Of a stretch of 64,000 nucleotides of DNA, positions 294-38,948 are shown one piece after another (the first letter of the stretch is position 1; every line of letters starts with the position of its first letter). Both the position numbers and the translations under genes were made by a program. The stretch lies in IMG/VR virus record IMGVR_UViG_3300032087_006189; one strand, given 5' to 3'. The notes under the pieces are model-generated. The model was not told where the DNA came from, ran no database searches, and saw only the letters and a program-made list of their open reading frames with translations. This DNA comes from a virus.

Positions 294-1133
294 CTAGTCT
301 TCCTGAAAGGCTTCGAGGCCCGAGATTTGGAAATCTTCGATGCCTGCGTGAACAGTATCGACGGCGGGTTGATGGTAAGTGGGGATGCCGTTGCTTTCGT
401 TGACGATTCTACTGTTGCTTAGCCGACGGACGCGGACGTCGTCGGTGCTCATCGCCAATCTTACTGATGCCACGGTAACATCTTCTTCGAAATCATACTC
501 TGATGCTCTCCGAGAAGATGTGATTTGGTTGAGAGAACGGAACTGGGGTTGCTGCTTGGGCGTAGTTTCCCATGTCCACTGGATCTGGAAAGGTATATTT
601 ACCTGACACATGATCAACTGGCCGGGGTCACCCATGACAAGCGCGCCTGGCGGGCTTGGTGAGTTTACCGTAGGAGATGGCCGAGCGATAGAGTGGAAGC
701 CGCCCGGACTCTCCAAAAGACGCTGGTTTACTCGAGTGTGGTGCGACACGATGTGCGCAAGGCGCATTGCTGTGATGTCGGAATCAGCGAGGCAATAAAC
801 AACCAGGTGCCCGGACAGGAGATCGGTACGCTTTCTGGCACCCGTATTCATGTTCAAAGACAGCATGTTGTCGATGCCGATGTTGCCGAACTGGTATGGC
901 CCCATCACAACAGTGATTGCCGGGCGCTTGCCCACGACTTCCGTATTGAGAGGGGCTTGGCCTCGGATCATAATCTCCGAGACTTCATCGTCGGGTTCCC
1001 AATGGAAAGTCCCAGAGGGCATCCAGTTGAAGAGGCCCTGGAGGTACTGCACATACAAACGCAGCGCGAAAACAGCAGGATCTTCTCCCCGGCTGATCTC
1101 AAGCGCTGAGCGTCTGGTGTGTGCAAAACTCAT
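294..1133 (-). CDS. Putative tail completion/terminator-type neck protein
   Basis: 279 aa between the neck genes and the sheath; RPAITV motif and beta-rich pattern. Function inferred from position. Confidence 0.4.
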   Translation of the reverse strand: MSFAHTRRSALEISRGEDPAVFALRLYVQYLQGLFNWMPSGTFHWEPDDEVSEIMIRGQAPLNTEVVGKRPAITVVMGPYQFGNIGIDNMLSLNMNTGARKRTDLLSGHLVVYCLADSDITAMRLAHIVSHHTRVNQRLLESPGGFHSIARPSPTVNSPSPPGALVMGDPGQLIMCQVNIPFQIQWTWETTPKQQPQFRSLNQITSSRRASEYDFEEDVTVASVRLAMSTDDVRVRRLSNSRIVNESNGIPTYHQPAVDTVHAGIEDFQISGLEAFQED

Positions 1134-1459
1134 TTGTCATCCAAAAAAGATCGAAGAGAGGCCTTCTTCTCTTGAGATCTGCGCTTGTCCATCTGATCTT
1201 TGATGTGCTCCGCGAGTGCATAACTGCCGACTGCGCCAGCCGTACCCGCGCCAGCGGCTCCGATGGACTGAATATGCCGCATCATCTGCAGCCTCTTCGC
1301 CTTTGGCATATTTCGTAGCCGGGACTGGATCCCGCGAGACTTGAGAACCTTGTGAGTGAGGTATCCCCCTCCGACTCCGCCAATCAAAGAACCCGCGCCA
1401 GCAGCGAGCGTAGGGAGAGCCACGATCTCAGCGATGCTCTTCTTTTTATCGTCTTTCAT
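1130..1459 (-). CDS. Small basic glycine-zipper protein
   Basis: Two GxxxG-rich hydrophobic segments; EKKAS near the C-terminus; 4-nt overlaps with both neighbours. Confidence 0.6.
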   Translation of the reverse strand: MKDDKKKSIAEIVALPTLAAGAGSLIGGVGGGYLTHKVLKSRGIQSRLRNMPKAKRLQMMRHIQSIGAAGAGTAGAVGSYALAEHIKDQMDKRRSQEKKASLRSFLDDK

Positions 1460-2334
1460 TGTCTCACTCGGTAGAGGCCAAAGACATCCAGACTTGATGT
1501 CTGCGACGCCTGCAGCGTCTGAGCATTCTGGAAGTTCCTCTGAGGAACCAGAGTGACGGTCTCAGTATTGACCTTAAGAGGGATCTTGTCTTCGATAGAG
1601 CCTTTTTGAATCAAAACGAGTTTGAGTTCTGCTCGGACGAGGCAGCCAAACATCGAGGTTCCGCCTGACTCTACGACTCGATACCTGCGATTTTGGTGAT
1701 CAATGATCAAATCCAGAGGTTTGATACCCGGAGATGGCCCGCATCGAAGCTGGGACATCTGCACTCTGCGGTGGTCGTCTACACTGACCTGCTCAGTCTC
1801 TGGGCTGGCATCAACTTGGCCCCAGAAAGATGTGGGGTAATGGTACCCGCCGCTGAACCCAGTTCCCCAACAAGTAGGGCATCGTGCGTCCACGGTCTTA
1901 CCGAGCACATCATCGTAGCAATTGGGACACCGCTGCCCAAATGACCTGCGGGGAAACAGCCAGCATTTGACTCCGACGAACTCCTCAAAGAGAACTCGCT
2001 CTCTTCGGATCATCTCTGCGGCAAGAAGAGCTGGCGGGCCCTCTCTATCTACCGTAGCAGAATATATCGTACGGTCGGTGGGCACATGTTTGCAGCGAAC
2101 CCGGTAGTACATTGTCCGCGCGTTCGTCGTGATGGTGTGAACGCTGTTGTCGCGAATGTAGTACTGATCGATCAACGGGCCTGCGATGGTATCCCAGGGT
2201 CCAGCTTCGGCTTCGGCACGCTCCACGTAGAACTCGTACTGCTGAATGTCTTCAGCAGTCGGCTCAATCTCCCAGAAGAAGTCGTAGTAATCCAGGGAGA
2301 ACGAAACTACGCGCTCGTTCCGAAACTTGATCAC
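1456..2334 (-). CDS. Putative head-completion/neck protein with Zn finger
   Basis: RCPNCYD..CPTCWGTGFSGGY; beta-sandwich-like N-terminus; neck-region position. Confidence 0.5.
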   Translation of the reverse strand: MIKFRNERVVSFSLDYYDFFWEIEPTAEDIQQYEFYVERAEAEAGPWDTIAGPLIDQYYIRDNSVHTITTNARTMYYRVRCKHVPTDRTIYSATVDREGPPALLAAEMIRRERVLFEEFVGVKCWLFPRRSFGQRCPNCYDDVLGKTVDARCPTCWGTGFSGGYHYPTSFWGQVDASPETEQVSVDDHRRVQMSQLRCGPSPGIKPLDLIIDHQNRRYRVVESGGTSMFGCLVRAELKLVLIQKGSIEDKIPLKVNTETVTLVPQRNFQNAQTLQASQTSSLDVFGLYRVRQ

Positions 2335-4969: not shown

Positions 4970-6100
4970 TCAGAAGACGTTGATGCTCGGGAAGGTCAGA
5001 CCGTCAGCCACCTTGTTGTTGAGGGCGCCGATGTCGGACTCTTGAACCGGCTTGACCGCATCAGCAGCCGCAGCGGTAGAAGAGGCGTCGCCATCGTAGA
5101 GCTCAAGCTTCACCACAGCAGCGATGTTGCCGAAGCCCATGCCCACGTCCATCCAGGCCTGCCAGAAGATCCGGTTCGCGACCTTGTCGATGTAGAACTT
5201 CACATCGTTCAGGGTGTAGTTGCGACCGAAGAACTCCGGAGCCGTGAAGACATAGACGTTGCCTTCACGAAGGATGTCGTTCTTGATGGTGCGGATGATG
5301 CGCAGACCGAGGACCTTGTTGTAGGTGTAACCGTCGAGAGCGGTCTCGCTCTGGAGACGGTCACCGTAGTCCTCGTGAGTCCACTGATCGAAGTCGTCAG
5401 CATCGGACTCGGTCATCAGCATCAGAGCGGGACGCAGGCGGCCGGCACGGATGATGTTGCCACTGGAGTCGGAGATCTGGCGCTTGAGGAGCTTCTTGAT
5501 GTTCACGATGTCCGAGCGCTGGATAGCGTAGGTCGTGTAGTCAGAAGAGCCGCCAGCAGCCTGAGCAGCAAGGACACCCTTGATCTTCGACACGGAGGTC
5601 GAAGCCGAAGTGAACACGGTGGAGCCCGTGCCCTCTTCCTGCATGGCGTCGATGCAGGACTCGACGTGGTTCAGGAACTCGCGATCCTTCACCTCGACCA
5701 TGTCCTTGAGGCTGTTCTCCTCGATGATGCGCGTGATGGGCATCTCGTAGGCCATCAGCTCCTGCTCCACGATCTCGAACTTGAGGCTCGAGATGGTGAA
5801 GAAGCCGATCGCGTACCGCTTGCCGTTCACGTACTCAGCGGTGGGCTGACCACGGAAGTTGACGGCCATCGCGCGGGAACCCGGCTCGATGTCGACAATC
5901 TTCACGAGGGTGTCGTGCTCGGTGCTGCGCTGGAGGTCGCCACGCACAACGCGCTCGTTCGGAACGATCATGTCGGCGAAGCTGGACTCGCGCAGGCGGT
6001 CCTTGATGTAGTTCAGGGAAGCGGCGGCGGTCTTCGTCGGACCCTCAGTCTCGAGGCGCTCGATGAAGCCCGAGTTCACCATGTCAGCGGAATAATCCAT
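4970..6100 (-). CDS. Major capsid protein (HK97 fold presumed)
   Basis: 376 aa with strong codon bias; follows the protease/scaffold/decoration genes and precedes a hairpin; TKTAA at residues ~22-26 suggests a short propeptide. Confidence 0.75.
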   Translation of the reverse strand: MDYSADMVNSGFIERLETEGPTKTAAASLNYIKDRLRESSFADMIVPNERVVRGDLQRSTEHDTLVKIVDIEPGSRAMAVNFRGQPTAEYVNGKRYAIGFFTISSLKFEIVEQELMAYEMPITRIIEENSLKDMVEVKDREFLNHVESCIDAMQEEGTGSTVFTSASTSVSKIKGVLAAQAAGGSSDYTTYAIQRSDIVNIKKLLKRQISDSSGNIIRAGRLRPALMLMTESDADDFDQWTHEDYGDRLQSETALDGYTYNKVLGLRIIRTIKNDILREGNVYVFTAPEFFGRNYTLNDVKFYIDKVANRIFWQAWMDVGMGFGNIAAVVKLELYDGDASSTAAAADAVKPVQESDIGALNNKVADGLTFPSINVF

Positions 6101-6716: not shown

Positions 6717-7082
6717 TTATTCGCCGGAAAGGCAGAATGAGGTGAGGGGGTCCAGGGCGGAAGTCCCGGGATGGTCCGAAACGTCGGCAAGGCGAACAGT
6801 ACCAGCACTGGCCATCTTGACGGCTTCTCTGACGTTCTCAAGCTGCGCATGACCCCGAAGATGCGCAATCTTCTCTTCGAACGTCATGTCAGCATTGAGT
6901 CCTTTGTCTTCCATTTCCCGAGCCAGCTCAGCGATCTGGCCGTCCCGGTGGATGGAAGCAAGCTTTGTGCGGAGCTGGACATTTTCCATCTCCAGACTCG
7001 CGACCTTTTCAGTCAGCGAGCGAATGGTTGCGGCGCTCTTCGCAGAGACCGCAGCCAGTTCTGCGCTACCAATCTTAAGCAT
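6717..7082 (-). CDS. Coiled-coil scaffold-like protein
   Basis: Heptad pattern; AKSAA, EKVAS, TKLAS, VKMAS. Confidence 0.55.
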   Translation of the reverse strand: MLKIGSAELAAVSAKSAATIRSLTEKVASLEMENVQLRTKLASIHRDGQIAELAREMEDKGLNADMTFEEKIAHLRGHAQLENVREAVKMASAGTVRLADVSDHPGTSALDPLTSFCLSGE

Positions 7083-7096: not shown

Positions 7097-7312
7097 TTAA
7101 ATGCGTCGAAGAAGTTGGTCGATTCGTGCTTGGCGGGCGTCTTGTTCGCTCATTCGCTCTTTCTCGGCGGTCGCCAACTTAAGGTGATTTGAGTTTACCG
7201 AAGAACTGATTCCTTCGCAAACTCCAATCATCGCTTCTTTGACGTGACTACCCAGCGCGCCAGAGTCGATGGCGTCAAAAAGGACCGAGTATTCTGCGAT
7301 TGAGCGGGGCAT
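7097..7312 (-). CDS. Small hypothetical head-region protein
   Basis: Fills the gap and is coupled to the upstream stop; VKEA and LKLA motifs. Confidence 0.45.
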   Translation of the reverse strand: MPRSIAEYSVLFDAIDSGALGSHVKEAMIGVCEGISSSVNSNHLKLATAEKERMSEQDARQARIDQLLRRI

Positions 7313-8055
7313 CAGCCTGCCATCCCACGAAGACGGTCTGCGACAGAGGGCTTCTCGCCAGATGCGATCTTGAGGTTGCCCTTGGAGGCAGCAGTGGGGA
7401 AGATCTGTGCTGCTGTTGCATCACCGAGCGTGTCGCTGGTGTGAGCGAAGGCTTCCTGAAGGCGGGCACGGGTGCTCTTCTTCAGATCGCGCCTGTTGGC
7501 GTTGACCGGGCCTTCATTGGTGTGGAGAGTCTGACGATAGGTCGAGTTCTCGTTGGCAGTGGTCACACCAGCAGAGGTCTCGGAGTCATGCTCAGCAGGG
7601 CCACCCATTCCGGCGGTCTTGTTTCCCATCAGCACATCGTAGAGCGAGGCACTCTCGGCCTGCTTGAAGGACTCGAGCATGGTCTTCTCGCCATCCTTGG
7701 CCTCTGGGGAAGCAGAAGACTGAGCCGGGCTGTTGCCGCTGACGAGGCCCTTCGGGTTCAGCTTCTTCTTGCCCTCAGAGGGGGCCTGACCCTGCACACC
7801 GGAGGCCATGGTCGGACCCTGTGCGGGACTGGTTGCCGACTTGTAGAAATCCCGAATCATCTCCTGGCGGAAGCCAGCAGCGTTGTCACCGCCGGAGGCG
7901 CTCAGGGAGATAAACTCGAGTGCGTTGGCGAGATCGGAGGCTTCCTTGACCAGCGCATCGCCGGCGGAAGCGGTCTTCATGGTCTCGACGGGAGTGTGGG
8001 CTCTGGCGCGAGCGGCCTCGAGAGCCTGGTCGATCATGCTTCTGTAGTTGCTCAT
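7312..8055 (-). CDS. Scaffold/core-like protein
   Basis: Low complexity; MKTAS, VKEAS, YKSAT, NKTAG, LKIAS. Confidence 0.6.
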   Translation of the reverse strand: MSNYRSMIDQALEAARARAHTPVETMKTASAGDALVKEASDLANALEFISLSASGGDNAAGFRQEMIRDFYKSATSPAQGPTMASGVQGQAPSEGKKKLNPKGLVSGNSPAQSSASPEAKDGEKTMLESFKQAESASLYDVLMGNKTAGMGGPAEHDSETSAGVTTANENSTYRQTLHTNEGPVNANRRDLKKSTRARLQEAFAHTSDTLGDATAAQIFPTAASKGNLKIASGEKPSVADRLRGMAG

Positions 8056-8064: not shown

Positions 8065-8949
8065 CTACATGACAGGTGGGGGTGAAGGCGTGCCCACTTG
8101 AGAAGTGGTGCCAGAGGAAATCAGGGAACCGGGGTTGCTACCGGTGGTGCTTGTTCCAGTCACCATAGCTTTGCCCGGTCCGGCTTTTTGAAACTTAGCG
8201 AGATTTCCGGCTTGCGCGGGCTTTGGGTCTGCAAGGCCCCGCGGGGTCCTTCCATTGGCAATGCCGGGAATTCTAAGGGGGCCAGACCGCCGATTCGCGG
8301 CCAGCTTATTCATTTCATCAAAGAAGAAGTGGAAGATCAGATCGTCTACAGAACCAAACTTGCCCATGAAGTGGTCATAAGCCGCTTTGGCCTGTCTGAA
8401 CGACTCGTCTGCTTCCGGATTATTGGGGTTGCGGTCGGGGTGAAATTTCAGTGCTTTCTTGCGGTACGCCTTTCTGAGCTCGTCTTGACTTAGCCCCTCA
8501 AACTCCTGGGCAAATTGATTTGCAGCCAGATCTTCGGGGGACAGCTGATTCTTCAGTGTAGGAGCAGGAGCAGGAGCAGCCTTTGCCTTGATGTCGTCTA
8601 CCGCTTGCCCGGCGCGGGCCTTCATCTTGTCCAGGCCGCCTCTCAACGTGTTCATGTTGAGATTGCCTGCCCGGTACATCGAGACGCCCTTACCGACCCC
8701 CGCGCCGAGACCGGCGCCCATGACCGCACCACCAAGGGTACGGCCAAGGACGCCTTGTCTCTTCCCGGTCTGGGGATCGGTTGGGGCGGTCGCAGCTCCG
8801 CTAATGCCACCACCGACAGCCCCAATCCCGGCACCAATCATGGTGCCGGTGGGCTTGAAGGCTTTTGGAGCTACGGAAGGCGCTGCCTTACCGACGGCTC
8901 CAATCGCCCCCTTTCCGATGGTAGCAATAGCGGTGCTGATACCCATCAA
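8065..8949 (-). CDS. Glycine-zipper protein with DnaJ J-domain
   Basis: [39 protein letters not shown], with intact HPD; N-terminal GxxxG segments. Confidence 0.8.
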
Positions 8950-10352
8950 TCGATCTCGTAGCCAGCAACGTCGAGCATGTGGGCGGCGAGCTCAACGACA
9001 TCATCTGCCGAGGAGCGCTTTTCGCCCAGGTACTTCTTCCGCGCTTCGGGAGTCATCTCGGACCCGGCCGCGCTGCCGAGGAACCCACGGAGGGGGCGGT
9101 AAATACCCTTTTCGCGAAGATCCTTGTCCTTGGCGAGGGTGACTCCTACGCCTCCGCCGAGGGCGCCGCCGCCGAGGGCACCAAGAAGAGCTCCGCCAGC
9201 AGCGCCGGCCTTTCTCACCTTCTTGTTTGAGGTGAGTGCCCCGATCCCTGCGCCAAGAGCGCCGCCAGCTGCCGCACCCATGCCGTAGCCCTTGCCGTAG
9301 CCCTTGAGGTTCTTCTTCATCACGTCACCGGAGTGCAGGTACTGGCCCAGACCCCGATCACTCATGCGCTGTGCGCGCTCCGTAGCCATGTCGGTGTCTC
9401 GCTGACCCGCGCTCTCCATCCGGTCCTTCTTTGCTGCGATCTTCTCGGCGGTGTCGTACGCAACATCAGCGCCGAACTCATCGGAGATCATGAGAAGGGC
9501 TGCAATTTCTTCGCCGTCGAAGGAGGCGTTCTTCTCGGCCTTCTTCTTGTCGTGACGCTTCTTGAGGGCGTACGCGCCGCCGCCAGCGAGAGCGAGGCCG
9601 CCTGCAGCGAGGCCGCCCTTGGCAAGGTTGCTCATGCCCTTGCCCTTCTTGCCGGGAACCCTCTCCATGGCGCCCTTTGCGCGCCTGACGAGAGCCCGAG
9701 GATTCAGCCGCTCGTTGAGCTCGCTGGCCGAGGGGGCAGCGGCTTCCTTCTCGATCTCGTCGACGTATGCGCGAGCCATGTGACGGCCGAGGAGCTCAGC
9801 CTCAGCGAGCTTCTCCTGAGCGTCGGCGACCTTCTGGATTGCCTCTTCGTCGCCGATCTGCAGGGGCAGAACATTCTCGACGTAGTGATCGTACAGGTCA
9901 GTAAGCTCGTACTGGTTGAGCGCGTTGAGGTCGATGTCCTCTGCGGAAGCAGTCTTCTGGAACATGTCGAAGACGATCTCCTCATCGGAGGCCTGCTTCT
10001 CGCCCTCAAACGCCTCGATCTGCTCGGGCAGGACGTTCTCGACATAGTGGTTGTAGAGCTCTGCAAGCTCGTCGTCGGCCATCTCGTCGAGGTCAATGCC
10101 CTCAGCGGCGGCGGTCTTCTCGAACAGATCAACGATTTCGTCGTTCATGGCTGAAGCCTCTTTGGTGTTGTCCGCGTCGGACAGGTTGTTGGAAGCAAAA
10201 TGGGCGTACAGCTCTTCGACTTGATTCTCTTCAAGATCGTCGAGGTTCACGCCTTCGGCGGCAGCGGCCTTCTCAAAGAGACGGACAGATGCCGCCTTCT
10301 CCAGATCTTCAGCCGTGACGCCCCGTGCCTCAAGCTCCTCAAGGAGTGACAT
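8946..10352 (-). CDS. Acidic-repeat scaffold-like protein with C-terminal glycine zippers
   Basis: Probable start ATG 10352; three FxKxAxAE(G/D)(I/V)xL..LYxH repeats; about ten K-x-A motifs. Confidence 0.65.
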
Positions 10353-12285: not shown

Positions 12286-12845
12286 CAGTCGCCCAGTTCG
12301 CCAATGAACTGAGTCAGCGGCTTCATGGTTGTCTTTGCGCCTTCCATGCCTGCTGCCTGAGCAGGGGAGGTTCCCTTACCCTGGATGCTTTGAAGCAGGG
12401 CGGGATCGAAGCGCGGCGCACTCGAGGGATCGTCGGGATCCATTCGGTTGGTCATCACCATGTCGAGAACGGTGCCGGCAATCAGCGGGTCCTTGGAGTA
12501 GTCGGGGTTGACGCTACGGAGCGTCTTGAACGCCATGCGCAGGTTGGGATCATCTGCGCTGCCAAGCTGAGGATTCACCTCGACGACTCGCTTCAGGTCG
12601 CGGTTGAACATCATCGCGTTCATGCCGCCCTCGATTGCCTGCGGAATCTTCGAGCCCGCGTAGGCAAGGGTCGGCGCCGCAACTGCAAGGCCGCCAAGCC
12701 GGAGAGCTGCCTTGTTATCGAGATTGAAGGCCGCCGACTTGCTGAGATCGGATGCGAACTTCTCGAGCCCTTGGAGCTCCTCTTCCGAGATCTCTCCACG
12801 GGCAAACGCAGCGTATGCTTCTGCTGGGACTTCAACTGACATCAC
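12285..12845 (-). CDS. Hypothetical head-region protein with hydrophobic segment
   Basis: EKFAS and SKSAA followed by LGGLAVAAPTLAYAG. Confidence 0.6.
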   Translation of the reverse strand: MMSVEVPAEAYAAFARGEISEEELQGLEKFASDLSKSAAFNLDNKAALRLGGLAVAAPTLAYAGSKIPQAIEGGMNAMMFNRDLKRVVEVNPQLGSADDPNLRMAFKTLRSVNPDYSKDPLIAGTVLDMVMTNRMDPDDPSSAPRFDPALLQSIQGKGTSPAQAAGMEGAKTTMKPLTQFIGELGD

Positions 12846-19276: not shown

Positions 19277-19277
19277 G

Positions 19278-23541: not shown

Positions 23542-23786
23542 TTCAGAAATCTCCGGCGAAGTCTCTCGGCTACGGTGGGGGCAGAGGAAGTCTTCATGCG
23601 CCCAGCGGCAACAAAATCGTCGCACACACTGGCGGGCTCTGCCTCAAAAGAAAACTGCTCGCAGTATCCAGATCCATCGTTGGTTGCTCTGAAGTACGAA
23701 CAGACCTCACAGCGGTTATCCCCCGCTGTGGGGCCATAGTTGGGAGCGTCTTCAACTCCCGCTATTTTTGGGAAAAAGTGAAACAT
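23538..23786 (-). CDS. Small 4-Cys protein, HiPIP-like spacing
   Basis: Y..CEVCSYF...GYCEQF......VCDDF, flanked by PKIAG and MKTSS. Confidence 0.55.
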   Translation of the reverse strand: MFHFFPKIAGVEDAPNYGPTAGDNRCEVCSYFRATNDGSGYCEQFSFEAEPASVCDDFVAAGRMKTSSAPTVAERLRRRFLK

Positions 23787-29700: not shown

Positions 29701-32700
29701 TTGAGCTCGGCCTCTGCCTTCTTCAGCTCAGCATCGACATTCATCTTTGAGAGCTTCTCTTCAATGACCTTGAACCCAGACTTGCTGCCCACGGCCCCTT
29801 CAGCAGTCAGCAGCTTTTGGAACTCAGGCTTCTTCATCCCAAGAAGAGATCGAATTGGTTCCTCAAAAAGAGGATTTGGAACTTTCATCCCGAGGTCCAT
29901 GTGGGACCACTTCTCTCCTTGGAGGCCTCCGGTCTTGCCGCGGTCGAAGAGACCGCCTCTCTCTTCTTTGGTCAAAGACCCTTTCGCAGACAGAGTCTTT
30001 TCTGGGAATGCCAGCGCACCAGAGCTCTGTGCCTTTGTCTGGGCATCCGTCATCGGCATGAGGGAGTACTCTCTGCCGCTGCGCTCGGAAGACACCCCCA
30101 TCGCCTTCATGTACTTCTGGAACTGAAGCATGGAGCGCGGCACCTTTGGAGTAGGTGGGCGCTGCCCAAGAAGAATCCGCTTCCAGGTGTCCTCTGCCTG
30201 TTCCTTGTCAGACTTGTAGGTCTGCATCTCGCGGAGGTTGAACTTCGCGCCATGCGCGAGCAGCGTGTAGGTATCGAGGCCACCAATTCTCTGGCCGCCC
30301 TTTCCGATACCTGAACCCTGCGCTGCCTCACCGGTAGTCTTGTATCCGTAGCCAGCTCCACCAGAGCGAGCAGAGATCTTCTTCTCAGCCTGGTGGTCGA
30401 GCTTCAGCAGATACTGCGGCCCAGTGAATACTGGTCCAAGACTTTCTCCAGTCTCGGGGTCGAACAGCTCTTCGGTATCTGAGATCTTGTGCTTCTTCAG
30501 CTCGGACTTCACGAGTGCCGAGTAGTCGACATCCGGATTGAAGTTGTCCACCACGAAGGGCTTGCCAGTCTTGAGCGCGATCTTGCCTGCCGCAGTCTCG
30601 AGAATCTGCCCGGGGTTCATACGGGACGGAACACCGGCAGGAGACATCAGAACCTGGACTGCGTTGCCCTTCTTGTCCTTGGGCATCTGATCATCAGGAA
30701 GGATTCTAGTGACGATGCCCTTGTTACCATGGCGACCAGAGAGCTTGTCTCCGACTTCCATGGTCTGCTCGGTACGGATGAAGACCGCGATCTTCTTTCC
30801 AGTGCTTACGACACGGACGACCTTTCCTCCGTACTCGTGCTTCCAGCGTTCTTCGGACGGGTTGAAGTCTCGGATTGCGCCCTTGAGCTGCTTCTTGATG
30901 TTTGCGGTCTCTCGGCTGTTGTCTTGCTTTACCAGCTTTGCGATCAGAACATCATCGGGCTCTACAACAGTGCCGACCTTTACGATTCCGCGGTCATCCA
31001 GTTTACGGAGAATGTCCGGGGTTGCCTTTTCAGGACCTGCATACCGACGCCACAAAGCCTTATCGACCACCACATTCGAATACATCTCCGTCTCAACAGA
31101 GTGAAGGTGGTTTGACACGAGCTTCTTCGCTGCAGACTCTGAGATGACGATTCCGTCCTCAAAGTTGTAGCCCTTGTACGGGATGTAAGCGACGCGCAGA
31201 TTTGTTCCCAGAGCGAGCTTTCCGCCCTTCGTGAAGTTGGAATCTGCGAGAAGCTGCCCCTTCCTGACTTTGTCCCCGACCTTTACGGCTGGAGTGGAAT
31301 CCAGCATGTGCTTTGCGCCGTTCAGCGGGTAGTTGTCGTACAGGGCGTGGACATACCTCTTCCCGTCGGCACCCTTCACTACGATCTGCTTCTTGTTGAC
31401 GCTGATGACTTGGCCAGTTGCACTGCTCGTGACCGAGGCGGTCGATCCTACTAGGTCTTCGTATGCTGCACCCTTTGCTGCGGCCGTCTGAACAAGTGGA
31501 GCTTCGCGCTCTTTGAGGCCGACCGCTTGCTCCTGGTGCTTGGCAGCCATCATCGAACGGTTGCCGTTGTCGTTCTGGATGAACGGAATCAGGTTTGCAC
31601 TGACCGCAAACAGCAACTTTGCTGACGGCAGGACATAGTCCACCTCTTTCCACTGGCGCTTTGAGGTGTTGCGATCCTTGTCGTAAACAACCACATCAGG
31701 CGTCTTTGGCTTTACAGAAACAGTGCCGTCAGACTTCTTCGTAATCTTGACCTGATCGGGGAACGCAACAACTGCCCGTTCCAGATCTGCCGCTGACTTT
31801 CGCTCTACCTTACCAGTACGTACATTCACAACCTGCGCCATCAGATCGTGCCCGACCTTCTGGGCTCCCATCGGCACATGCAGGTGGATACCAGTCTGCT
31901 GGCTCTCTGGGGTCTGCAGAGGATCGAGCACACCCAGATGACTGGGGTTGATCATCTTGTCCTGCATCAGGTTGACATTGTCGCCCTTGATCCCACCAAA
32001 TGCTGCGCCAAGAATCGTCGTCTTCGTGTGATTGGAAACGAACTGCAGGGGATTGGTCTGGGTGGGAAGCTGTGCCGCCTTGAACGGCTTGAGAATCGCA
32101 GCGCCGTACCCAGATGCCGACGCAGGGATGATCTCTTGGATTGAGTTCTTGCGGTCAACATTGTTTCGGATCTTGCGAGTCAGGGAATATGCCGTCTTCC
32201 CCTTTGTCAGCTCTTCTGCGACAAAGTCTTCGACCCCGTAAAGGCGCTTGTTCGCGATTGACTGTCGGTCGTCTTCCTTCGCGCGCCCCTTACTGATGTC
32301 CACCAGCTTCTTCGCAGAGAGAAGGAGTGCCTCTCCAGTGATGCTGGAAAACTCCTTTCCGAGCGCAGACTTCATGGTCTGCTTGCTGACTTCCGCACCC
32401 TCAAAAGTAGCGCGGGTAAATTCTCGCGCAACGGCAAGGCTGGGCTGCTTGTACTTCGTCTTGTCCCTACGACCTTCAATGGCTTCGTGAAATTTGACGA
32501 TGTCAGCTGGCTTGCTGTACCGCTTGTTGACCTCGTAGACCCCATCTCCGAGCGCAGCTCGAATCTTGGCGTCGTCGATTCCCATCGCGTTGAGAATGGG
32601 GATTACTGGAATCTTACGAGTAGAAGATCCTCCGCTTTTGATCTGAAGGTAGATGAAGCCAACCTTCTTGGGGTCTCTTCTTTCGATGAAGATGTCGAAC

Positions 32701-33152
32701 GAGCCCACCTTGCTACCTGCTGCCACATTCCACTTGGCAACCAAGTCCCCGTTCTGGGCCTCTGCGTGGTACGCGCCGGGGTTTAGGCGGAACACACTAT
32801 CGAACTGCTTCTCATTTCCATCAACAATGAAGCTGTAGCGCGTGGTGATCTTGGGCAGCTTCCCCAAGGTTCTCTTTCGCTGATCAATGACCTTGCCGGT
32901 TTCTTTTTCAATCAGCCGAAAATGTCCGACAATGTCAGGTCCCCAAGTGTTGCCATTGAGTCGTGCATCCAGCTGGCTGTCATAGTTCGCGGGATTGAAC
33001 TTGGCAGATCCTGTCGCAGAGTCGTCTTCGATCTCGAGCTTTGTCAGCTCAAGCCGGTGAACGTTTCCCTCGATCGGAAACTGCGAAGAAATGGCTTCTT
33101 TGGTCTTCTGGACCAGAAGCCTGTAGGACTCGAGGGGGTTCAGATTCGGCAT
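26799..33152 (-). CDS. rpoBC: DNA-directed RNA polymerase, fused beta and beta' subunits
   Basis: Beta motifs QTPE..GI, GYNFEDG, GDKLSGRHGNKG, PSRMNPGQ, GGQRIG; beta' motifs LGKRQDLSGRSVI, RDPALH, NADFDGD, SGARG, GEPITQ and DCGT..RSPLNC..CSTCYG. Confidence 0.95.
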   Translation of the reverse strand: MPNLNPLESYRLLVQKTKEAISSQFPIEGNVHRLELTKLEIEDDSATGSAKFNPANYDSQLDARLNGNTWGPDIVGHFRLIEKETGKVIDQRKRTLGKLPKITTRYSFIVDGNEKQFDSVFRLNPGAYHAEAQNGDLVAKWNVAAGSKVGSFDIFIERRDPKKVGFIYLQIKSGGSSTRKIPVIPILNAMGIDDAKIRAALGDGVYEVNKRYSKPADIVKFHEAIEGRRDKTKYKQPSLAVAREFTRATFEGAEVSKQTMKSALGKEFSSITGEALLLSAKKLVDISKGRAKEDDRQSIANKRLYGVEDFVAEELTKGKTAYSLTRKIRNNVDRKNSIQEIIPASASGYGAAILKPFKAAQLPTQTNPLQFVSNHTKTTILGAAFGGIKGDNVNLMQDKMINPSHLGVLDPLQTPESQQTGIHLHVPMGAQKVGHDLMAQVVNVRTGKVERKSAADLERAVVAFPDQVKITKKSDGTVSVKPKTPDVVVYDKDRNTSKRQWKEVDYVLPSAKLLFAVSANLIPFIQNDNGNRSMMAAKHQEQAVGLKEREAPLVQTAAAKGAAYEDLVGSTASVTSSATGQVISVNKKQIVVKGADGKRYVHALYDNYPLNGAKHMLDSTPAVKVGDKVRKGQLLADSNFTKGGKLALGTNLRVAYIPYKGYNFEDGIVISESAAKKLVSNHLHSVETEMYSNVVVDKALWRRYAGPEKATPDILRKLDDRGIVKVGTVVEPDDVLIAKLVKQDNSRETANIKKQLKGAIRDFNPSEERWKHEYGGKVVRVVSTGKKIAVFIRTEQTMEVGDKLSGRHGNKGIVTRILPDDQMPKDKKGNAVQVLMSPAGVPSRMNPGQILETAAGKIALKTGKPFVVDNFNPDVDYSALVKSELKKHKISDTEELFDPETGESLGPVFTGPQYLLKLDHQAEKKISARSGGAGYGYKTTGEAAQGSGIGKGGQRIGGLDTYTLLAHGAKFNLREMQTYKSDKEQAEDTWKRILLGQRPPTPKVPRSMLQFQKYMKAMGVSSERSGREYSLMPMTDAQTKAQSSGALAFPEKTLSAKGSLTKEERGGLFDRGKTGGLQGEKWSHMDLGMKVPNPLFEEPIRSLLGMKKPEFQKLLTAEGAVGSKSGFKVIEEKLSKMNVDAELKKAEAELKTAKEAELNVRYKRVRYLRALKDLGVKPVDAYMNSVLPILPPTLRRVSIGFDGTQIIDPVNVMYAQTGAMVRQLKQSEKERLPVQEIQKNQAEVYKLVKSLRLTGMQIEGRHAPSLMDKLSGLNQPKQSFFQSGVLGKRQDLSGRSVITPDPEMPLDEVGMPREMALEMYKPFVIKALVKDMGRASSPMQARIMVKKKHPAVYEALERVIKDRPAMMKRDPALHMFSIMAFRPKLVEGKSIKIHPLVTGGFNADFDGDTMAMYVPITEKAVDEAKAMMPSKNLFSPTSNKLMVAPSMDAVLGIYQATKWGKKKSGTYTDVQAIKALKAGKLKSYDVITVMGYKRPTTPGRLLINSTLPKEFKNRDDLLYDKDFRMAKGGMKGFATEIARANPEEFSKMIDQWKNLGFNLSYKNGSSFSLNDFHDGKEIRDQVLKKYKAEEAKIRKSGGSQQSKDDKIVKLYLKAQKELKSVGEDRYNRRQDNRMWEWAQSGARGNWGQFSQMVMGPMIVQDPMNKPVAFPITKSFGEGLPISQYYASLHGARKGTIDRASSTAKPGALTKELINTVIDNKIRSKDCGTTKGTLLPSMDADVEGRFLAGDVPLKDGQTLKRGSLVTSQVRQQIKKSGPAKVLVRSPLNCKEVKGICSTCYGLNERGTLYTVGTNVGVIAGHALGEPITQMQMKTFHTGGVGGESDVGDYFTAAEDLFKVPSTLKGSATLAEISGKIQKIETDALGGKTVTIDGKKHVVPHTNQLLPQIRVGYEVKKAEALSTGRKNPHDILRITKSMGAVRNHITDSLSALYVPTTGHERRRNIETVIRAMTDLTRIDDPGDDSSYLRGQLVPMSEVEAKNRDLKAMGKRPIKHKPKLKAMNQMPLAGQEDWMARLNFQRLKETYIEGAAQNWKSDIHGHPISGIAHGAEFGLEPSQTVKTPGLPKPVTPVSLSTATPKPADKSQTAQPKKTRFFSFL

Positions 33153-33735: not shown

Positions 33736-33970
33736 GTGTGAATGGTGCGGAGCAGCGGCAGCAAGGAATGAGAAGATGGTGTGCCTCTCTCGGCACACCG
33801 TTCTTCGTGGCCCTCGCCACTACCGCCTCAAAGAAGCAGAATTCTCAGACCAGGGACCTGAGATCATGCTGCACGAAGCCTGCCTCATCCAGAACTCAAA
33901 GGAGATTCTGGAGAGGCTGTACGAGGGAGTTCAGGTCGATCCTCCGAAGAAATGGAAGATCTCGGCTTAG
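33719..33970 (+). CDS. Small Zn-finger protein
   Basis: YECEWCG...HEAC. Confidence 0.5.
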   Translation: MPIPYECEWCGAAAARNEKMVCLSRHTVLRGPRHYRLKEAEFSDQGPEIMLHEACLIQNSKEILERLYEGVQVDPPKKWKISA

Positions 33971-36021
33971 CCGACCTGTCTTCCGGGATCGGCCTGCGGA
34001 TTTCCGGCCGGCGCGGGGTTCTTCATCGCGTCGGCCGGGTTTGTCTGGGAGCCCCGGTCATTCATTAGCTGTACTACCAGCTTGTAGAGCGGCGGGTTTT
34101 CCATCTGCATCTGCTGGAGGGCCTGGTACATGGCGTCCTCACCCTGCTCTCTTTTTAGCGTGCGGAAATACGACGCCGCTCTTTGCGCGATGTACCGAAG
34201 GTCTACGCCGCCAGAACCAGGCTGAACTTGCGACTGCATCCCTGCCATTGCGGCTGGCATGCCTGCCTGGTTCGGGCCTTGCGCGTTTTCTTCGTACGCT
34301 GTGGCCCCTTCCGGAAGTCCTGGCGTCTGCTGGGCAGCATCTCCGCCCTGCTGCTGCTGCTGCTGCGGCTGTTGGGCCTGCGCAGCTTGCTGTTGCTGCA
34401 TCTGCTGAGCCTGGGCCTGCTGCTGCGCCTGCATCTGCTGCTGCTGCATTTCCATCTGGGCTTGCCCCTGCGCCTTGAGCGTGAGGGCTTGAGCTTTTGC
34501 CTGATACCGAGAAGTACGGAGCTGGGCCTCGCCCTGAATATCGGCAGCAGCGACCTGCATTCTGCGGTTGGACTGGAGCTGCTTCTTGATCTCCTCGCCC
34601 ATGCGCTCGGATTCCAGATCGAAGTTCTCTCCGATCTCCTCCATGAGGCGGCGATCCGAAATCTTCTGTGCCTGGTTGAGCTGCAGATAGAACATCGACC
34701 GCTGAAGGTCGTCTGCCATGCGGAACTTGTCGAACCGAGTGGGCACCTTCGGCCACTGCATGAACGATGCGATTTTGCCCATGATGAAGCGGTTCACGAG
34801 CTCATGGCGCTGCTTGTTGTACCCGAGGAACATGTTCTCGAGTGCGCGCAGCGAGGTGCTCGATCCACTCCACTGCAGGCCGCCGAAGATGAACTCGACC
34901 GGGATACCCGCACCCGCAAGCATCTGCTCTGCCAAAAGCCGCATCTCTTGGTACATCAGCAGGGCTCGACCCTGTCCGCCGATCTGCTGAAACCCAATGT
35001 TCACGGGCAAGACCGGGATGTAGTTGTGATCGCGCTTCCACATGTTGATCTCTTCATCAACGCGGCGCTTCCAGTTGGTCAGGTTGTACGACCCATACGG
35101 CCCTTCATTACCTCCCGTGTTCTGTCCCGGGAAGATCATCCGCATCGGGACGATGTTCTCCATCAAGACAGCCTCGTTCGCCTTCTTCATCACCTGCAAG
35201 TAGAACGCATCCTTGAGCAGGGGGAAGATCAGGGGAGTGCCCCAGCCCTGATCCTTCTGCGCGATGGTCGGGCGCTTGAGGTGGTAGAGGTTGTCCTCTG
35301 AGAACAGGAGCGACTTTCGCTTGCGCGCAGCTTCAAGAAACTCGATGGGCAGAGACTCGACCGTGTCCTTGTCCCCCATCTTGATGTCGTTGACGACACT
35401 ACGAGGGAGCCGGAAGTAGTACTTCGTGTGGCCGGTGATCTCGTTGTGCTTGATATCGATGTTCTCGGGGTTCCAGCGCACGAGACGGATCTTGCGGAAG
35501 CTCCGCATGTAGACATCGTGCTGCTTGGCGTAGCCCTGGTGTCCGCAGTCACACTTGTGGATGTAGAACTGTGAGTTGCGCCACTTGTAGCGGAAGCGGT
35601 TGGTCTTTGCGCGGTACCGGGTCTTGCAAGAGGAGCAGATCAGGTACTTCTCAAACGGCAGGAAGACCGAAACAAACGCGTTGCCGTAGACGAAGTAGTC
35701 GAGACCGACCTCGACTTGGAACGACCGCAGCTTTAGGTGGTCCTCTACCCCCTTGTAAAGCTTCTGCAGCTCCGGATCTTCGGTCTCGAATACCAGCGGA
35801 GTAACTGGATACTCTGCCATCTTCGAACATGCGGCGTTGATGACCGGATTCGTCAGGTAGTAGTACCGACACCACTTATGCAGCTCATGCTGGTTCGCTG
35901 GAAGAAACTGCTGAGAAACATCGAAGAAGGGGGACGGGTAGCGAATCCCGAAGCCGCGACCACCCTCGGCCGTGACTGGGCGCGGATTGAACCGGTTTAC
36001 TTCGCTTGTGATCACATTCAT
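33967..36021 (-). CDS. Portal protein
   Basis: YYLTNPVINAACSKMAEYP, YFVYGNAF, YHLKRP...GWGTPLI and AGIPVEFIFG portal-like pattern; Q-rich C-terminal tail. Confidence 0.75.
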   Translation of the reverse strand: MNVITSEVNRFNPRPVTAEGGRGFGIRYPSPFFDVSQQFLPANQHELHKWCRYYYLTNPVINAACSKMAEYPVTPLVFETEDPELQKLYKGVEDHLKLRSFQVEVGLDYFVYGNAFVSVFLPFEKYLICSSCKTRYRAKTNRFRYKWRNSQFYIHKCDCGHQGYAKQHDVYMRSFRKIRLVRWNPENIDIKHNEITGHTKYYFRLPRSVVNDIKMGDKDTVESLPIEFLEAARKRKSLLFSEDNLYHLKRPTIAQKDQGWGTPLIFPLLKDAFYLQVMKKANEAVLMENIVPMRMIFPGQNTGGNEGPYGSYNLTNWKRRVDEEINMWKRDHNYIPVLPVNIGFQQIGGQGRALLMYQEMRLLAEQMLAGAGIPVEFIFGGLQWSGSSTSLRALENMFLGYNKQRHELVNRFIMGKIASFMQWPKVPTRFDKFRMADDLQRSMFYLQLNQAQKISDRRLMEEIGENFDLESERMGEEIKKQLQSNRRMQVAAADIQGEAQLRTSRYQAKAQALTLKAQGQAQMEMQQQQMQAQQQAQAQQMQQQQAAQAQQPQQQQQQGGDAAQQTPGLPEGATAYEENAQGPNQAGMPAAMAGMQSQVQPGSGGVDLRYIAQRAASYFRTLKREQGEDAMYQALQQMQMENPPLYKLVVQLMNDRGSQTNPADAMKNPAPAGNPQADPGRQVG
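34345..34450 (-). repeat. CAG-rich low-complexity tract (poly-Gln) in the portal C-terminus
   Basis: CTG runs on the + strand; QQQQMQAQQQAQAQQMQQQQ. Confidence 0.8.
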
Positions 36022-37076
36022 GACTGCTCACCACTCTGCCCGAATGCCCGGTCTACCAAAGATCCTGCGCCTCCGGCAATGTCTCCTGCCGCTCCCTCAA
36101 GAGGGGCCATAGCCAAGCCCGCAGCCGCGGGAACGAGCATCTTCTGACTGAAGAGTGACCTCTGGCTTGCCAGGGAGGGATCGATCTTCTTGAGGAGGGG
36201 ATTGAAGACATTGGACTTTGAGAGTCCCATGTTTCTTCCAGCCAGAAGATGCGCAGTCCCTGCCGTAAGGCCGGCACCGACTGCTCCTCTGGCCAGCCTC
36301 TCTGTGACGCCCCGCTTGTTACCGTACTCGTCAGTACTTGGGGCTGCCCCACCGAGACCCCCGATAGCTGCGCCGCCAACTTCCATAGCGCGCTCTCCCG
36401 GAATGTACGTCCCGATACCTCCGCGAAGGTTGACGCCCTGATCGGCCGCTTCTTGCCCGATCCTTCGGTATACGGACTCAATGTCTTTGTAGTCTACTCT
36501 GCCTGCCTTCTGGGCTTCTTGAATAGCCTTGATGTCTCTCTGAAGCCCTGCGCTGGCCTCAAATCCCTTCTCACCTTTAAGCCAGCTGCGCAGACCTCCC
36601 GATGAACGCTCGCCGACAGACATCCAGCCGCCACGTCTGGCCGCTCCCGCCCCTTCTCTTAGAGCATCATGCTGTGTGGCAGTTCCCCTAAGCGCGTCTT
36701 CGAAGGCCTCGTTCATGATCTCTACACGCTTTGACTGAGCGGCTCTCCGAGAAAACTTGTCGGCGCCTTCTCCAACGAAGCTCGCTCCGGTGTTCATCCC
36801 TCGGCGCATAGCCTGAACTGGGTTTTTGGCCGCGGCCGATACGTTGCCCAAAAACTTCTTGGCAGCTTTCGGGTTTGTAGCCAGCGCGCCAGCTGCGACA
36901 AGGCCTCCAGCAGCGCCCAGGGCGCCCATGGTTCCGCCAAAGTTTCTTTTGAAAAACCCAGGCTTCTTCTGTTGCTGTTGCGGCTGTGGCTGAGCAGCAG
37001 TCACGGGCTTGGCAGGCTGAAGCGCAGACAGCTTGGTCATCTCTTCAGAAAACGCCCGAAACACCAAAGTGTTCAT
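36018..37076 (-). CDS. Glycine-zipper protein with N-terminal F..EEM.KLS leader
   Basis: MNTLVFRAFSEEMTKLSA; four Gly/Ala hydrophobic segments. Confidence 0.7.
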   Translation of the reverse strand: MNTLVFRAFSEEMTKLSALQPAKPVTAAQPQPQQQQKKPGFFKRNFGGTMGALGAAGGLVAAGALATNPKAAKKFLGNVSAAAKNPVQAMRRGMNTGASFVGEGADKFSRRAAQSKRVEIMNEAFEDALRGTATQHDALREGAGAARRGGWMSVGERSSGGLRSWLKGEKGFEASAGLQRDIKAIQEAQKAGRVDYKDIESVYRRIGQEAADQGVNLRGGIGTYIPGERAMEVGGAAIGGLGGAAPSTDEYGNKRGVTERLARGAVGAGLTAGTAHLLAGRNMGLSKSNVFNPLLKKIDPSLASQRSLFSQKMLVPAAAGLAMAPLEGAAGDIAGGAGSLVDRAFGQSGEQS

Positions 37077-37867
37077 CTTCTTACTCCCGCCGAAGCTCGA
37101 TAAGAGAGCAACTGCTGAACTCCCTCAACTATCTTGTACGCGCAGATGTCATCTGCAGTTTCTTTGGCTGCCCGCCTACCGGTCAGTAGGTCTACCAGAG
37201 CTTTCTGTACTCCGGCAGTCGGGTACTTCTGGACTGTTCGGACCTTAGACCCGTCGTACCTTTTTTTGAGATCGGGACATGGCTCCAGCTTCATCAAGCT
37301 GTCTGCATTGTACCGATCGGTACAGTAGCTACAAAGGCCATCACGCTTCGGGCTTTCCTCATTTCCGCATTCGTCGCAGATCTGAGTCACACCTGAGATG
37401 AGCTCATTCACGAAGTCCAAAGGCTCGGGTACATACCAGATTCCAGAATCCAGGAGCTGCGCAGCGATGTACCGCTGAACCTCTTCTGCGTAGTCTGGAA
37501 CATTCGTGGCCGGTCCCAGCTCTCTTCGGATCTGATTGGCTACATCCACCGCCACCATCATCTCGCCAACAGAGTGGTCATCGAGATGGGAGACGGTAGG
37601 GATCTTGCCATTCAAGCCCTGACAGACAGTATGAAAGGTCTGCCAGCTATCCCAGAACCTGTCGTGATTCGCGACAGCAATCGCGGACAACAGCTTGAAA
37701 AATGCTGCACGAGAGATGTTGGCCTGGGTTCGATCTTCCACCGACTGCTTGATGACCGCAGGCTCCCATTCGAGTGCCTCCGGCCCAAACATAGCCAGAT
37801 AAGACTTGAGAAGAACGATCGGGTGCGTTTTCTCGTCTTTGAAGATTTCGGCCTCAGTAGCCGCCAT
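37073..37867 (-). CDS. Hypothetical protein with Zn ribbon
   Basis: Probable start MAATEAE; CDECG...CSYC. Confidence 0.65.
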   Translation of the reverse strand: MAATEAEIFKDEKTHPIVLLKSYLAMFGPEALEWEPAVIKQSVEDRTQANISRAAFFKLLSAIAVANHDRFWDSWQTFHTVCQGLNGKIPTVSHLDDHSVGEMMVAVDVANQIRRELGPATNVPDYAEEVQRYIAAQLLDSGIWYVPEPLDFVNELISGVTQICDECGNEESPKRDGLCSYCTDRYNADSLMKLEPCPDLKKRYDGSKVRTVQKYPTAGVQKALVDLLTGRRAAKETADDICAYKIVEGVQQLLSYRASAGVRR

Positions 37868-38948
37868 TGTCGGTATCCCGGGACTGCGATGCCAGTCGTG
37901 CCACAAGGACCTGCTGCTCGAGAGGCATCGACTTGAACGATGCTACTGGATCCTTGCGGAACCGATCACGAATGTCCTCGGTGAACACATCTTCCATCGC
38001 GTTCGAAGCCATGCTGCCGGAGTAGCGGCGAAGCTGCGTCTCGGTAACGTAATCACCGCCGTGATTCCAAGAGTATTCCGCTTGCTTTTCCGTAGCAAAA
38101 ACAGCAAGAACCGGGTTGGGCAGTGCCGACCCATACTTGTTCAGGAGACCTGCACGCTCATCCATCAGGAACAGCGCCTCAACCACATCATCTGGATCCA
38201 TCGCTGAAGCCATCTTGCTGAGGCGGATGTAGTCCTTCTGGTAGTCCTCGTTTGCGGTGTACTGCGCTCTGCGCGAGGCAACCTTTTCGAACCGAGGGTT
38301 CAGGCTTGTTCCACTGTACTGGAAGATGTGCGAAGGGACGGAAGCACCGACAGCAGATGCCAGCTTGACGACATCTACCGCTGCTTCGTGCTTGTCGTAG
38401 GGATCCATCTCGTCCCAAGCACGGATAGTCTCGGAGATAGCATCAAAGGCACTGGCTTCCTTGACCTGACCTCGGTGCGTGGGCTCTGCCATGCCGCGGC
38501 CCATGGGGCGCATGACCTGAGAAGGCTCATACACATCGGGGTTGCTGTACTGCGTTGATGAAGCGGTCTTGACATAGAGCCGGCGACCGTCTCCCGGAGT
38601 GTCCAGGTCTTGTGCTGCCAGCAAGGCCAGAGCAGGATGCGGACCCATTCCGAAGTCCTCAGCCGCGTTCAGCAGATTTGCAGAAGCAACCTTCACAGCC
38701 TCGGGAGGGAGGTTGTGATCGACATTCATCAGGTACCACTGAGACATCAGAGTGTTGCCCGGATCGTGGCAGGCGAACTTTCTGTGCTCCTTGCCCTCGC
38801 TGTCTACGAGGATGACAGCGAAATCTCGATCAAGGAGATCGTCCCGCTCTTTCCACTGGGCGGTCTTCAGCAACTCAGCGGCAGATTGGGCCATTCCTGA
38901 CTGCCGAAAGCTCGCGCAGAGATCGTCGTGCTGGTCGATCACGGGCAT
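37854..38948 (-). CDS. Head-region protein with many K-x-A-S motifs
   Basis: VKVAS, VKTAS, VKEAS, VKLAS, EKVAS, SKMAS, EKQA; AGGAG RBS. Confidence 0.7.
   Translation of the reverse strand: MPVIDQHDDLCASFRQSGMAQSAAELLKTAQWKERDDLLDRDFAVILVDSEGKEHRKFACHDPGNTLMSQWYLMNVDHNLPPEAVKVASANLLNAAEDFGMGPHPALALLAAQDLDTPGDGRRLYVKTASSTQYSNPDVYEPSQVMRPMGRGMAEPTHRGQVKEASAFDAISETIRAWDEMDPYDKHEAAVDVVKLASAVGASVPSHIFQYSGTSLNPRFEKVASRRAQYTANEDYQKDYIRLSKMASAMDPDDVVEALFLMDERAGLLNKYGSALPNPVLAVFATEKQAEYSWNHGGDYVTETQLRRYSGSMASNAMEDVFTEDIRDRFRKDPVASFKSMPLEQQVLVARLASQSRDTDNGGY

Follow-up and report, generated by a model that had tools for sequence, protein, structure and literature searches.

Lys-x-Ala as the probable recognition code of a prohead protease with the predicted gp21/assemblin fold in an uncultured large phage

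In a 64,000-nucleotide stretch of the IMG/VR virus record IMGVR_UViG_3300032087_006189 (here called the window), the short peptide motif K-x-A-[S/A] recurs in proteins encoded by the head-gene block on the minus strand. We propose that this motif, in its wider form K-x-A-[S/A/G] and more fully a hydrophobic residue-x-K-x-A followed by S/A/G, is probably the code by which the phage's own prohead protease, the N-terminal domain of the product of open reading frame (ORF) 10339-12285, recognizes its cleavage sites. Judged from its structural model, this domain is predicted to be a very divergent serine protease with the fold of T4 gp21 and herpesvirus assemblin. Head-protein processing by proteases of this fold is known; new would be the specificity, in a protease clade without a Pfam family. 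To our knowledge, only a few systems (T4, phiKZ/201phi2-1/SPN3US, HK97) have served for studies of large-phage capsid maturation proteases, and all the large-phage codes end in Glu. In the literature that we searched, we found no description of a phage head protease that follows a Lys-x-Ala rule.

A first-pass annotation of the window, made by eye, had described the motif in most head-region proteins and as much sparser elsewhere. We counted K.A[SA] in 52 translated ORFs and compared each protein with 2000 composition-preserving shuffles (P value floor, 0.0005), with the 35 ORFs of 1130-38948 defined as the head block. Pooled over the head block, 60 occurrences were observed versus 14.7±3.7 in shuffled sequences (z = 12.2). 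All of the per-ORF counts given by the first-pass annotation were reproduced: 1 in the major capsid protein (MCP; 4970-6100), 10 in 12842-14290, 9 in 8946-10400, 7 in 22045-23625, and 6 in 37854-38948. The last four are the richest ORFs, each with a shuffle P value of 0.0005. At least one site was present in 19 of the 35 head ORFs, in line with a motif found in most of them, but individual significance was reached by only about eight. The sparseness elsewhere was borne out as well: genes outside 1130-38948 contained 6 sites versus 4.3 expected, the large terminase (15581-17386) contained 0 versus 0.27, the RNA polymerase (26799-33152) contained 2 versus 2.5, and two giant tail-region ORFs of 2239 and 936 amino acids (aa) contained 0 and 0 versus 0.81 and 0.31. 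Two caveats apply to the head-block count, as 6 of the 9 sites in 8946-10400 stem from three tandem ∼55-aa repeats and three further sites stem from a common MDK(L/I)AAY leader. For comparison, T4 gp22, used as a positive control, holds 16 [LI].E sites versus 5.8 expected, and T4 gp21 holds 7 versus 2.5. In 8 of the 19 carrier proteins the first site fell within residues 10 to 45 (14% expected), a bias that fits N-terminal propeptides like those removed by the T4 and SPN3US proteases.

The motif also emerged from an unbiased scan in which all three-residue gapped patterns at six spacings were enumerated. In the head ORFs, K.AS ranked first (40 versus 5.7 expected; Poisson probability, 1e-20), and the runners-up, K..SA and EK.A, were sub-patterns of the same motif, whereas the scan of non-head genes yielded nothing comparable to K.AS. 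Control patterns in the head proteins were flat, with z values from -2.0 to 2.7; reversed and permuted versions and those with Arg for Lys, Gly or Ser for Ala, or shifted spacing had z values from -0.2 to 1.9. At motif positions, Ala is encoded by all four of its codons and Ser by codons of both families, and therefore selection acts on the peptide rather than on the DNA. It could be argued that the motif is a functionless by-product of composition, helical periodicity, repeats, or a DNA element, given the A-, K-, and E-rich, largely helical nature of the carrier proteins and the origin of six sites in tandem repeats. However, the per-protein shuffles preserve composition, the control patterns are not enriched, and synonymous codons vary; moreover, unrelated proteins carry the motif, both in loops and in helices, and it is kept down to 38% MCP identity, all of which makes this explanation barely credible. 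We rejected a DNA-level motif because of the codons used at the motif positions and an artifact of composition or periodicity because of the flat control patterns.

The fuller sequence logo reads hydrophobic, E/V/T, K, T/V/x, A, S>A, A. In the head proteins, hydrophobic residues are overrepresented at the second position ahead of K, with 45 occurrences of [LIFMV].K.A versus 20.5 expected. Codes of the Glu type were not enriched in these proteins ([LI].E, z = 1.6; [SAG].E, z = -1.1; A.E, z = 1.0), nor was the assemblin-type [VLI].AS (z = -0.8). Because the known Glu-type codes are unenriched here, a different specificity, as the first-pass annotation had suggested, is the natural reading. By analogy, the cut probably follows Ala, with K at P3, A at P1, a small residue (S/A/G) at P1', and a hydrophobic residue at P5, since the near-invariant K and A are spaced i, i+2, like P3 and P1 in the codes proven for the gp21/assemblin fold. 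Alternatively, the same protease could cut after Lys, recognizing hydrophobic-x-K ahead of x-A-S, with the hydrophobic residue at P3 and Lys at P1. The HK97 capsid protein site has Lys at P1, a hydrophobic P3 is found in T4 and assemblin, the enrichment of [LIFMV].K.A would suit such a cut, and L.K.A heads the pattern scan in some distant relatives. We nevertheless consider a cut after Lys improbable. The spacing of K and A matches P3/P1 in T4, phiKZ/SPN3US, and assemblin; an invariant Ala at P2' would be unusual; and the residue following A is small (S>A>G), like that at the herpesvirus A|S sites (PMC4498786).

ORF 10339-12285 (minus strand) encodes a 648-aa protein laid out as a protease-scaffold fusion, with an N-terminal leader (residues 1 to 39), the protease fold (residues 42 to 291; 11413-12162, minus strand), a helical region (residues 308 to 612), and a conserved C-terminal tail. 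An AlphaFold2 (AF2) model built from a 49-sequence alignment had a mean predicted local distance difference test (pLDDT) score of 80, with values around 90 in the protease domain. The first-pass annotation had assigned a putative protease to this ORF, and a protease fold was indeed found in the model: in a structural comparison with VIA-align, the best match was T4 gp21 (5jbl_C), with a Z score of 9.3 and a root mean square deviation of 2.8 Å over 131 aa. The next matches were the proteases of varicella-zoster virus, pseudorabies virus, herpes simplex virus, Kaposi's sarcoma-associated herpesvirus, human cytomegalovirus, and Epstein-Barr virus (Z scores of 6 to 7.7, all over residues 54 to 285), and the 30 or so matches following T4 gp21 were almost all herpesvirus proteases (Z scores of 5.5 to 7.7). 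In the model, the domain thus has the assemblin-type fold of MEROPS clan SH. At the sequence level, there was a weak match of residues 126 to 223 to a head maturation protease family (PHROG 18299; E = 6e-4), and searches of PDB chains with the protease, as a single sequence or as a profile, returned nothing relevant. As no sequence method reaches the S77 or S21 families, the domain is best described as a predicted fold-level relative of gp21 and assemblin and not as a member of either family. The clade that it represents is very large, with 3,706 clusters (at 50% identity) matched by the domain profile at E≤1e-3 and 1,306 at E≤1e-30.

Candidate catalytic residues are His137/His138 (11872-11877, minus strand) and, as the nucleophile, Ser194 (11704-11706, minus strand), all of which are invariant in alignments of 49 and 18 sequences, as is D202. 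The order is His and then Ser, 56 to 57 residues apart. In homologues, the protease domain is interrupted by inteins at residues ∼137 to 139, ∼197, and ∼204. Active-site motifs are the typical places of insertion for inteins, and the positions near His137/138 and Ser194 therefore point to a His/Ser active site. Many homologues (P0059, P0089, P0091, P0095, P0109, P0113, L019:2660-5800, and others; about 900 to 1400 aa) carry one to three such inteins, recognizable by Hint_2, Intein_splicing, and LAGLIDADG_3 domains, with three distinct, conserved insertion spots, about H137/H138, about S194-G196, and about C204. Following Ser194 lies a cluster of cysteines (C204, C207, and C218, with C173 nearby). 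Most homologues share this cluster, which is a possible zinc-binding site, and two members of the family gave weak matches to a double zinc ribbon model.

The motif flanks this domain. KTAS at residues 37 to 40 (12166-12177, minus strand) lies just before the fold, in a segment with pLDDT<50 (residues 14 to 41); KVAS at residues 293 to 296 (11398-11409, minus strand) lies just after it, in segment 292 to 307; and KTAA at residues 399 to 402 (11080-11091, minus strand) lies between two helical sub-domains, in segment 399 to 403. The first-pass annotation had pointed out the first two, as TKTAS and VKVAS on either side of the domain, and both were confirmed, together with the third. The ORF thus carries three K-x-A-[SA] sites versus 0.37 expected, all of them within its pLDDT<50 segments (three of the six). 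At residue 399, K-x-A is kept in 17 of 21 orthologues. A fourth, conserved K-x-A, KTAE at residues 593 to 596 (10498-10509, minus strand), was apparent from the alignment ∼25 aa before the conserved tail LSxxLLxLAYWP; its fourth residue, which would be P1' for a cut after Ala, is E here and S/A/D in most homologues. Across the protease family, sites were counted in 130 to 136 best representatives, ≤50% identical to each other. Position 37 was K in 106 of 119 and position 39 was A in 109 of 118, with a hydrophobic residue two positions before K and S/A/G after A across the representatives. After the domain, K.A[SAG] was found in 126 of 130 at a median distance of 16 aa, versus 149 aa in shuffled sequences, and the C-terminal tails of the representatives held 487 sites versus 108 expected. 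Sites that bracket the protease domain in ∼130 diverse homologues are, as read from these sequences, a signature of autoprocessing.

To see how far the motif extends, an MCP search was used, which retrieved 39 related loci with 38 to 90% identity, and the pattern scan was run on 16 related contigs. Over this whole range of MCP identity, K.AS ranked first in 13 of the 16; in the remaining 3, it ranked second, or K-T-A or L.K.A was among the leading patterns. In orthologue alignments, the K and A of the motif were conserved at 0.8 to 0.95 versus 0.25 to 0.55 for other K and A residues, and x was at background. Sites turn over, with their number maintained: in distant orthologues of 37854-38948 and 22045-23625, some are retained and new ones have arisen within insertions, as would be expected of a short functional signal. 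In two whole relatives, of 165 kb and 196 kb, significant enrichment was confined to five or six genes, all in the head module except for one 66-aa ORF in the 196-kb genome.

Homologues of the protease domain are also encoded by cultured phages, namely, Arash gp222, D69 VPHD69_0270, and phage G gp19 (31 to 33% identity; E = 2e-28 to 5e-12), which are annotated just as "structural" or "hypothetical." Salmonella phage Arash and Vibrio phage D69 share gene order and motif enrichment with the window: L.K.A occurs 22 times in Arash versus 3.3 expected and K.AS 14 times versus 2.8, and one 269-aa protein encoded upstream of the MCP gene in D69 carries ten sites. In Bacillus phage G, gp19 has GLVKTAA before the domain and ILEKVAS and VLLKIAS after it, but this phage differs in that its head module is not globally enriched and its MCP lacks a site. 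These distributions bear on whether another enzyme, from the host or elsewhere in the phage, might cut at the sites instead of the 10339-12285 product. In favor of another enzyme, the proposed link between the protease and the sites is indirect, and the fold match is moderate. On the other hand, the motif flanks the protease domain in about 90% of the family representatives, motif and protease occur together in phages whose hosts are unrelated (Salmonella, Vibrio, and Bacillus), and genome-wide the enrichment is limited to 5 to 6 head-module genes around the protease; we therefore regard a different enzyme as very unlikely.

The protease gene lies within the minus-strand head module that also holds the portal, terminase, and MCP genes, between portal and MCP and next to scaffold-like genes. 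A protease, a motif-rich protein, a small coiled-coil protein, and the MCP form the usual gene order of head modules, which supports assignment of the motif to the protease. The MCP (4970-6100, minus strand; weak PHROG match to a major head protein) has a single site, KTAA within T-KTAA, at residues 23 to 26 (6023-6034; 1 versus 0.28 expected), whose K-x-A is kept in 38 of the 39 related loci with a fourth residue that varies among A, E, Q, and N. The 121-aa coiled-coil, scaffold-like protein 6717-7082 (minus strand) carries four K-x-A-[SA] sites versus 0.23 expected (P = 0.001) and an invariant EEK-I-A-H, with K71 and A73 invariant across 15 orthologues. Sites 27, 37, and 229 are present in the 247-aa protein 7312-8055 (minus strand; 3 versus 0.67 expected), the first of them conserved in all 20 orthologues. 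The gene that follows immediately downstream of the one for the protease, 8946-10400 (minus strand), encodes an acidic protein with nine sites versus 1.2 expected, three tandem ∼55-aa repeats, and a C-terminal half with Gly/Ala-rich hydrophobic stretches; its motif K residues are conserved at 0.77 versus 0.25 for other K residues in orthologues, and its true start is probably at 10352. On the other side of the protease gene, the 186-aa protein 12285-12845 (minus strand) has two N-terminal sites, at residues 29 and 36.

The 482-aa helical protein 12842-14290 (minus strand) carries ten sites versus 1.06 expected, and K35/A37, K112/A114, and K372/A374 are invariant in a 21-sequence alignment with a mean column identity of 32%. 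It contains an insert of ∼107 aa (residues ∼115 to 221) that is bounded by EKTAS and VKSAS and absent from all 20 orthologues, and a C-terminal extension found in close relatives only starts at GEKSAG/GEKTAS. The insert is basic and rich in Ser and Arg, and AF2 predicts it to be disordered. In an AF2 model of the protein (pLDDT, 68), sites 112, 219, 242, 353, and 444 lie in low-confidence or loop segments. The suggestion that sites often fall at the borders of compositionally different modules thus holds for two boundaries of this protein, but half of its ten sites are in confident helices, and the claim is therefore not general.

Among the remaining carriers, 22045-23541 (minus strand; counted as 22045-23625) has two sites on the N-terminal and five on the C-terminal side of a 303-aa central region (7 versus 0.52 expected). 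In its G001 and G005 orthologues, sites are either retained or replaced; a look-up of the protein in the ESM Atlas gave no usable match. The first gene of the minus-strand block, 37854-38948, has six sites in its middle third (6 versus 0.36 expected), with conserved as well as newly arisen sites among five orthologues. The 637-aa protein 23786-25699 (minus strand) has a leader ending in FFEKQAS (residue 17) and a further site at residue 441, with no enrichment over the whole protein (2 versus 1.5). Two small genes, 21085-21633 and 21648-22037 (minus strand), share the leader MDK(L/I)AAYE..PLWTKE[AG]. A ∼21-aa leader, MDK(L/I)AAYE(M/L)(L/I)L..(D/H)PLW(T/S)(E)K(E/G)(A/G), is common to these two and 18818-19486, which are otherwise unrelated; ORF 18818-19486 is probably called too long at its 5' end, with an internal start near 19276.

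A motif that is conserved in otherwise fast-evolving proteins, often near their N termini, might also be an uncut linear binding signal, serving in capsid targeting or in multivalent docking to scaffold, protease, or the inner shell surface. That half of the sites in 12842-14290 lie in helices would agree with binding, as would the presence in Arash virions of orthologues of motif-rich proteins, still found with hundreds of spectra. Yet up to ten copies per protein and the tight bracketing of the protease domain are what autoprocessing would leave, and T4 gp22 is equally enriched for a proven cleavage code. We consider binding without cleavage unlikely. Leaders in T4 combine targeting and cleavage, and the two readings are thus not exclusive.

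Several observations weigh against a cleavage code read by the 10339-12285 protease. Foldseek placed herpesvirus proteases and T4 gp21 at the top of its matches, but with an E value of 0.026; no Pfam family was matched by any of the 49 alignment members (E≤1); and an hhalign comparison of the domain profile with T4 gp21 was insignificant (probability, 0.2%). Three residues, D202, D237, and D252, are candidates for the third catalytic position, with none singled out. In 12842-14290, sites 35, 93, 269, 330, and 372 lie inside confident helices of the AF2 model and are less accessible than expected for cleavage. The fourth residue of the MCP site is variable (A/E/Q/N in relatives and G in D69 and Arash), and one relative lacks the Ala. 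Cluster C mycobacteriophages such as Catera, which carry a distant branch of the protease family, show no K-x-A enrichment, and therefore the code does not span the whole protease superfamily. Finally, no cleavage product has been observed: 116 proteins were detected in Arash virions, among them orthologues of motif-rich proteins, in a proteome given without peptide positions and in a paper that makes no mention of a protease or of processing (PMC10585845).

The window, with a G+C content of 55 to 59%, is part of the genome (∼170 kb) of an uncultured phage. Relatives in IMG/VR measure 165 to 196 kb and include a complete one that has terminal repeats; a nearest-neighbor DNA search of a phage collection with the window gave no match. 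Its minus-strand structural block spans 1-38948 and includes, besides the head genes described above, the large terminase (15581-17386; E = 9e-58), the portal (33967-36021), and a fused beta-beta' RNA polymerase of 2117 aa (26799-33152), all on the minus strand. The polymerase has Rpb2 domains (beta) at residues 176 to 1019 and Rpb1 domains (beta') at residues 1287 to 1845 in one ORF inside the structural block. In Arash, beta and beta' have a gene each and rank with the most abundant proteins of the virion (PMC10585845), and by this analogy the fused polymerase is probably packaged in the virion. The giant ORFs 53659-60378 (minus strand; 2239 aa) and 61189-63999 (minus strand; at least 936 aa) are low in Lys, have no Pfam match, and contain no K-x-A-[SA]; they probably encode tail or baseplate/fiber proteins. 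Gly/Ala-rich hydrophobic, glycine-zipper-like stretches were seen in 8946-10400, 8065-8949, 12842-14290 (C terminus), 1130-1459, 21648-22037, and 36018-37076 and may be membrane-active segments of ejected proteins.

Among known systems, T4 gp21 (MEROPS S77), which cuts at (L/I)-x-E sites in gp22, gp23, gp24, gp67, gp68, and internal proteins, is the best structural match. The window protease resembles it in the position of its gene beside scaffold-like genes and upstream of the MCP gene, in sites of a self-processing type on both sides of the domain, in scaffold or core proteins with many sites, and in short N-terminal leaders that end in the motif. Unlike gp21, it has no sequence-level relation to the S77 family and falls outside the Peptidase_S77 profile, its code is K-x-A and not L/I-x-E, and the 648-aa protein has a long helical C-terminal region and a Cys-rich insertion after Ser194. 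In the herpesvirus pUL26/assemblin system (MEROPS S21), the R- and M-sites are cut at Ala|Ser, the R-site releasing the protease and the M-site removing an MCP-binding tail (PMC4498786). The window protein has the same architecture, to the extent that a scaffold function of its C-terminal region may be supposed: the protease forms the N-terminal part of a fusion with a scaffold-like region, and sites 293 (R-site position) and 593 (M-site position) bracket ∼300 aa of helical sequence, with a conserved tail after residue 596. If the cut follows Ala, P1 Ala and P1' Ser would also be shared. Dissimilar are the residue two positions before Ala, which is Lys and not the Val/Leu/Ile of the (V/L/I)-x-A|S consensus, and the much larger numbers of substrates and of sites per substrate in the window. 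Proteases phiKZ gp175 and SPN3US gp245 (MEROPS S80) process many head and ejection proteins at S/A/G-x-E or A-x-E (PMC10052503, PMC5694885), with gp245 recognizing A-X-E at P3-P2-P1 and preferring Ser at P1' (PMC10052503). Common to these phages and that of the window are a large genome with a virion RNA polymerase (a probable one in the window), a code spread over many head proteins, multisite propeptides cut, or in the window predicted to be cut, into smaller pieces, and Ser preferred after the cut. However, Glu is the last residue of their codes, their proteases are unrelated in sequence to that of the window, and cutting has been measured in these phages, both by mass spectrometry and in vitro, whereas the code of the window is predicted from sequence.

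From the enrichment, conservation, and placement of the sites we infer that they are cleaved, and a course of head maturation can be proposed. The protease would act after prohead assembly and would free itself from its 39-aa leader and from the C-terminal helical, scaffold-like region by cutting at sites 37, 293, 399, and 593. N-terminal leaders of 17 to 40 aa would be taken off the MCP and several other head proteins. The scaffold or core proteins (6717-7082, 8946-10400, 12842-14290, and the flanks of 22045-23541 and 37854-38948) would be cut into pieces of ∼10 to 100 aa, as T4 gp21 does to gp22; lying beside protease and MCP, the heavily marked proteins fit scaffold or core proteins that are to be broken up. 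The first-pass annotation had interpreted the motif-bearing ORFs as polyproteins from which the protease releases many small capsid-internal peptides. Its interpretation is supported with regard to fold, enrichment, and flanking sites, but for most ORFs, scaffold degradation of the gp22 type and propeptide removal would be a more economical account than polyproteins, which are possible for some.

It is quite possible, and we suggest it tentatively, that a very large clade of tailed-phage proteases without a Pfam family uses a herpesvirus-like rule, combining a cut between Ala and a small residue, a protease-scaffold fusion, and release- and maturation-type sites, with Lys as a second determinant. 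If true, this would tie capsid maturation in phages to that in herpesviruses more closely, in mechanism, than T4 does, and a change of specificity within the gp21/assemblin fold would be illustrated. The cultured phages Arash and D69 make the code directly testable. A second sequence-readable code, tied to a protease family that has thousands of members and no Pfam match, would allow one to predict from metagenomes which head and ejected proteins are substrates and where their propeptides and mature ends lie, and it would make processed head proteins recognizable in genomes of mostly "hypothetical" genes. If the clade does use the herpesvirus-like rule, the motif by itself would be enough to foretell, for thousands of large phages that have not been cultured, every head protein that is processed.

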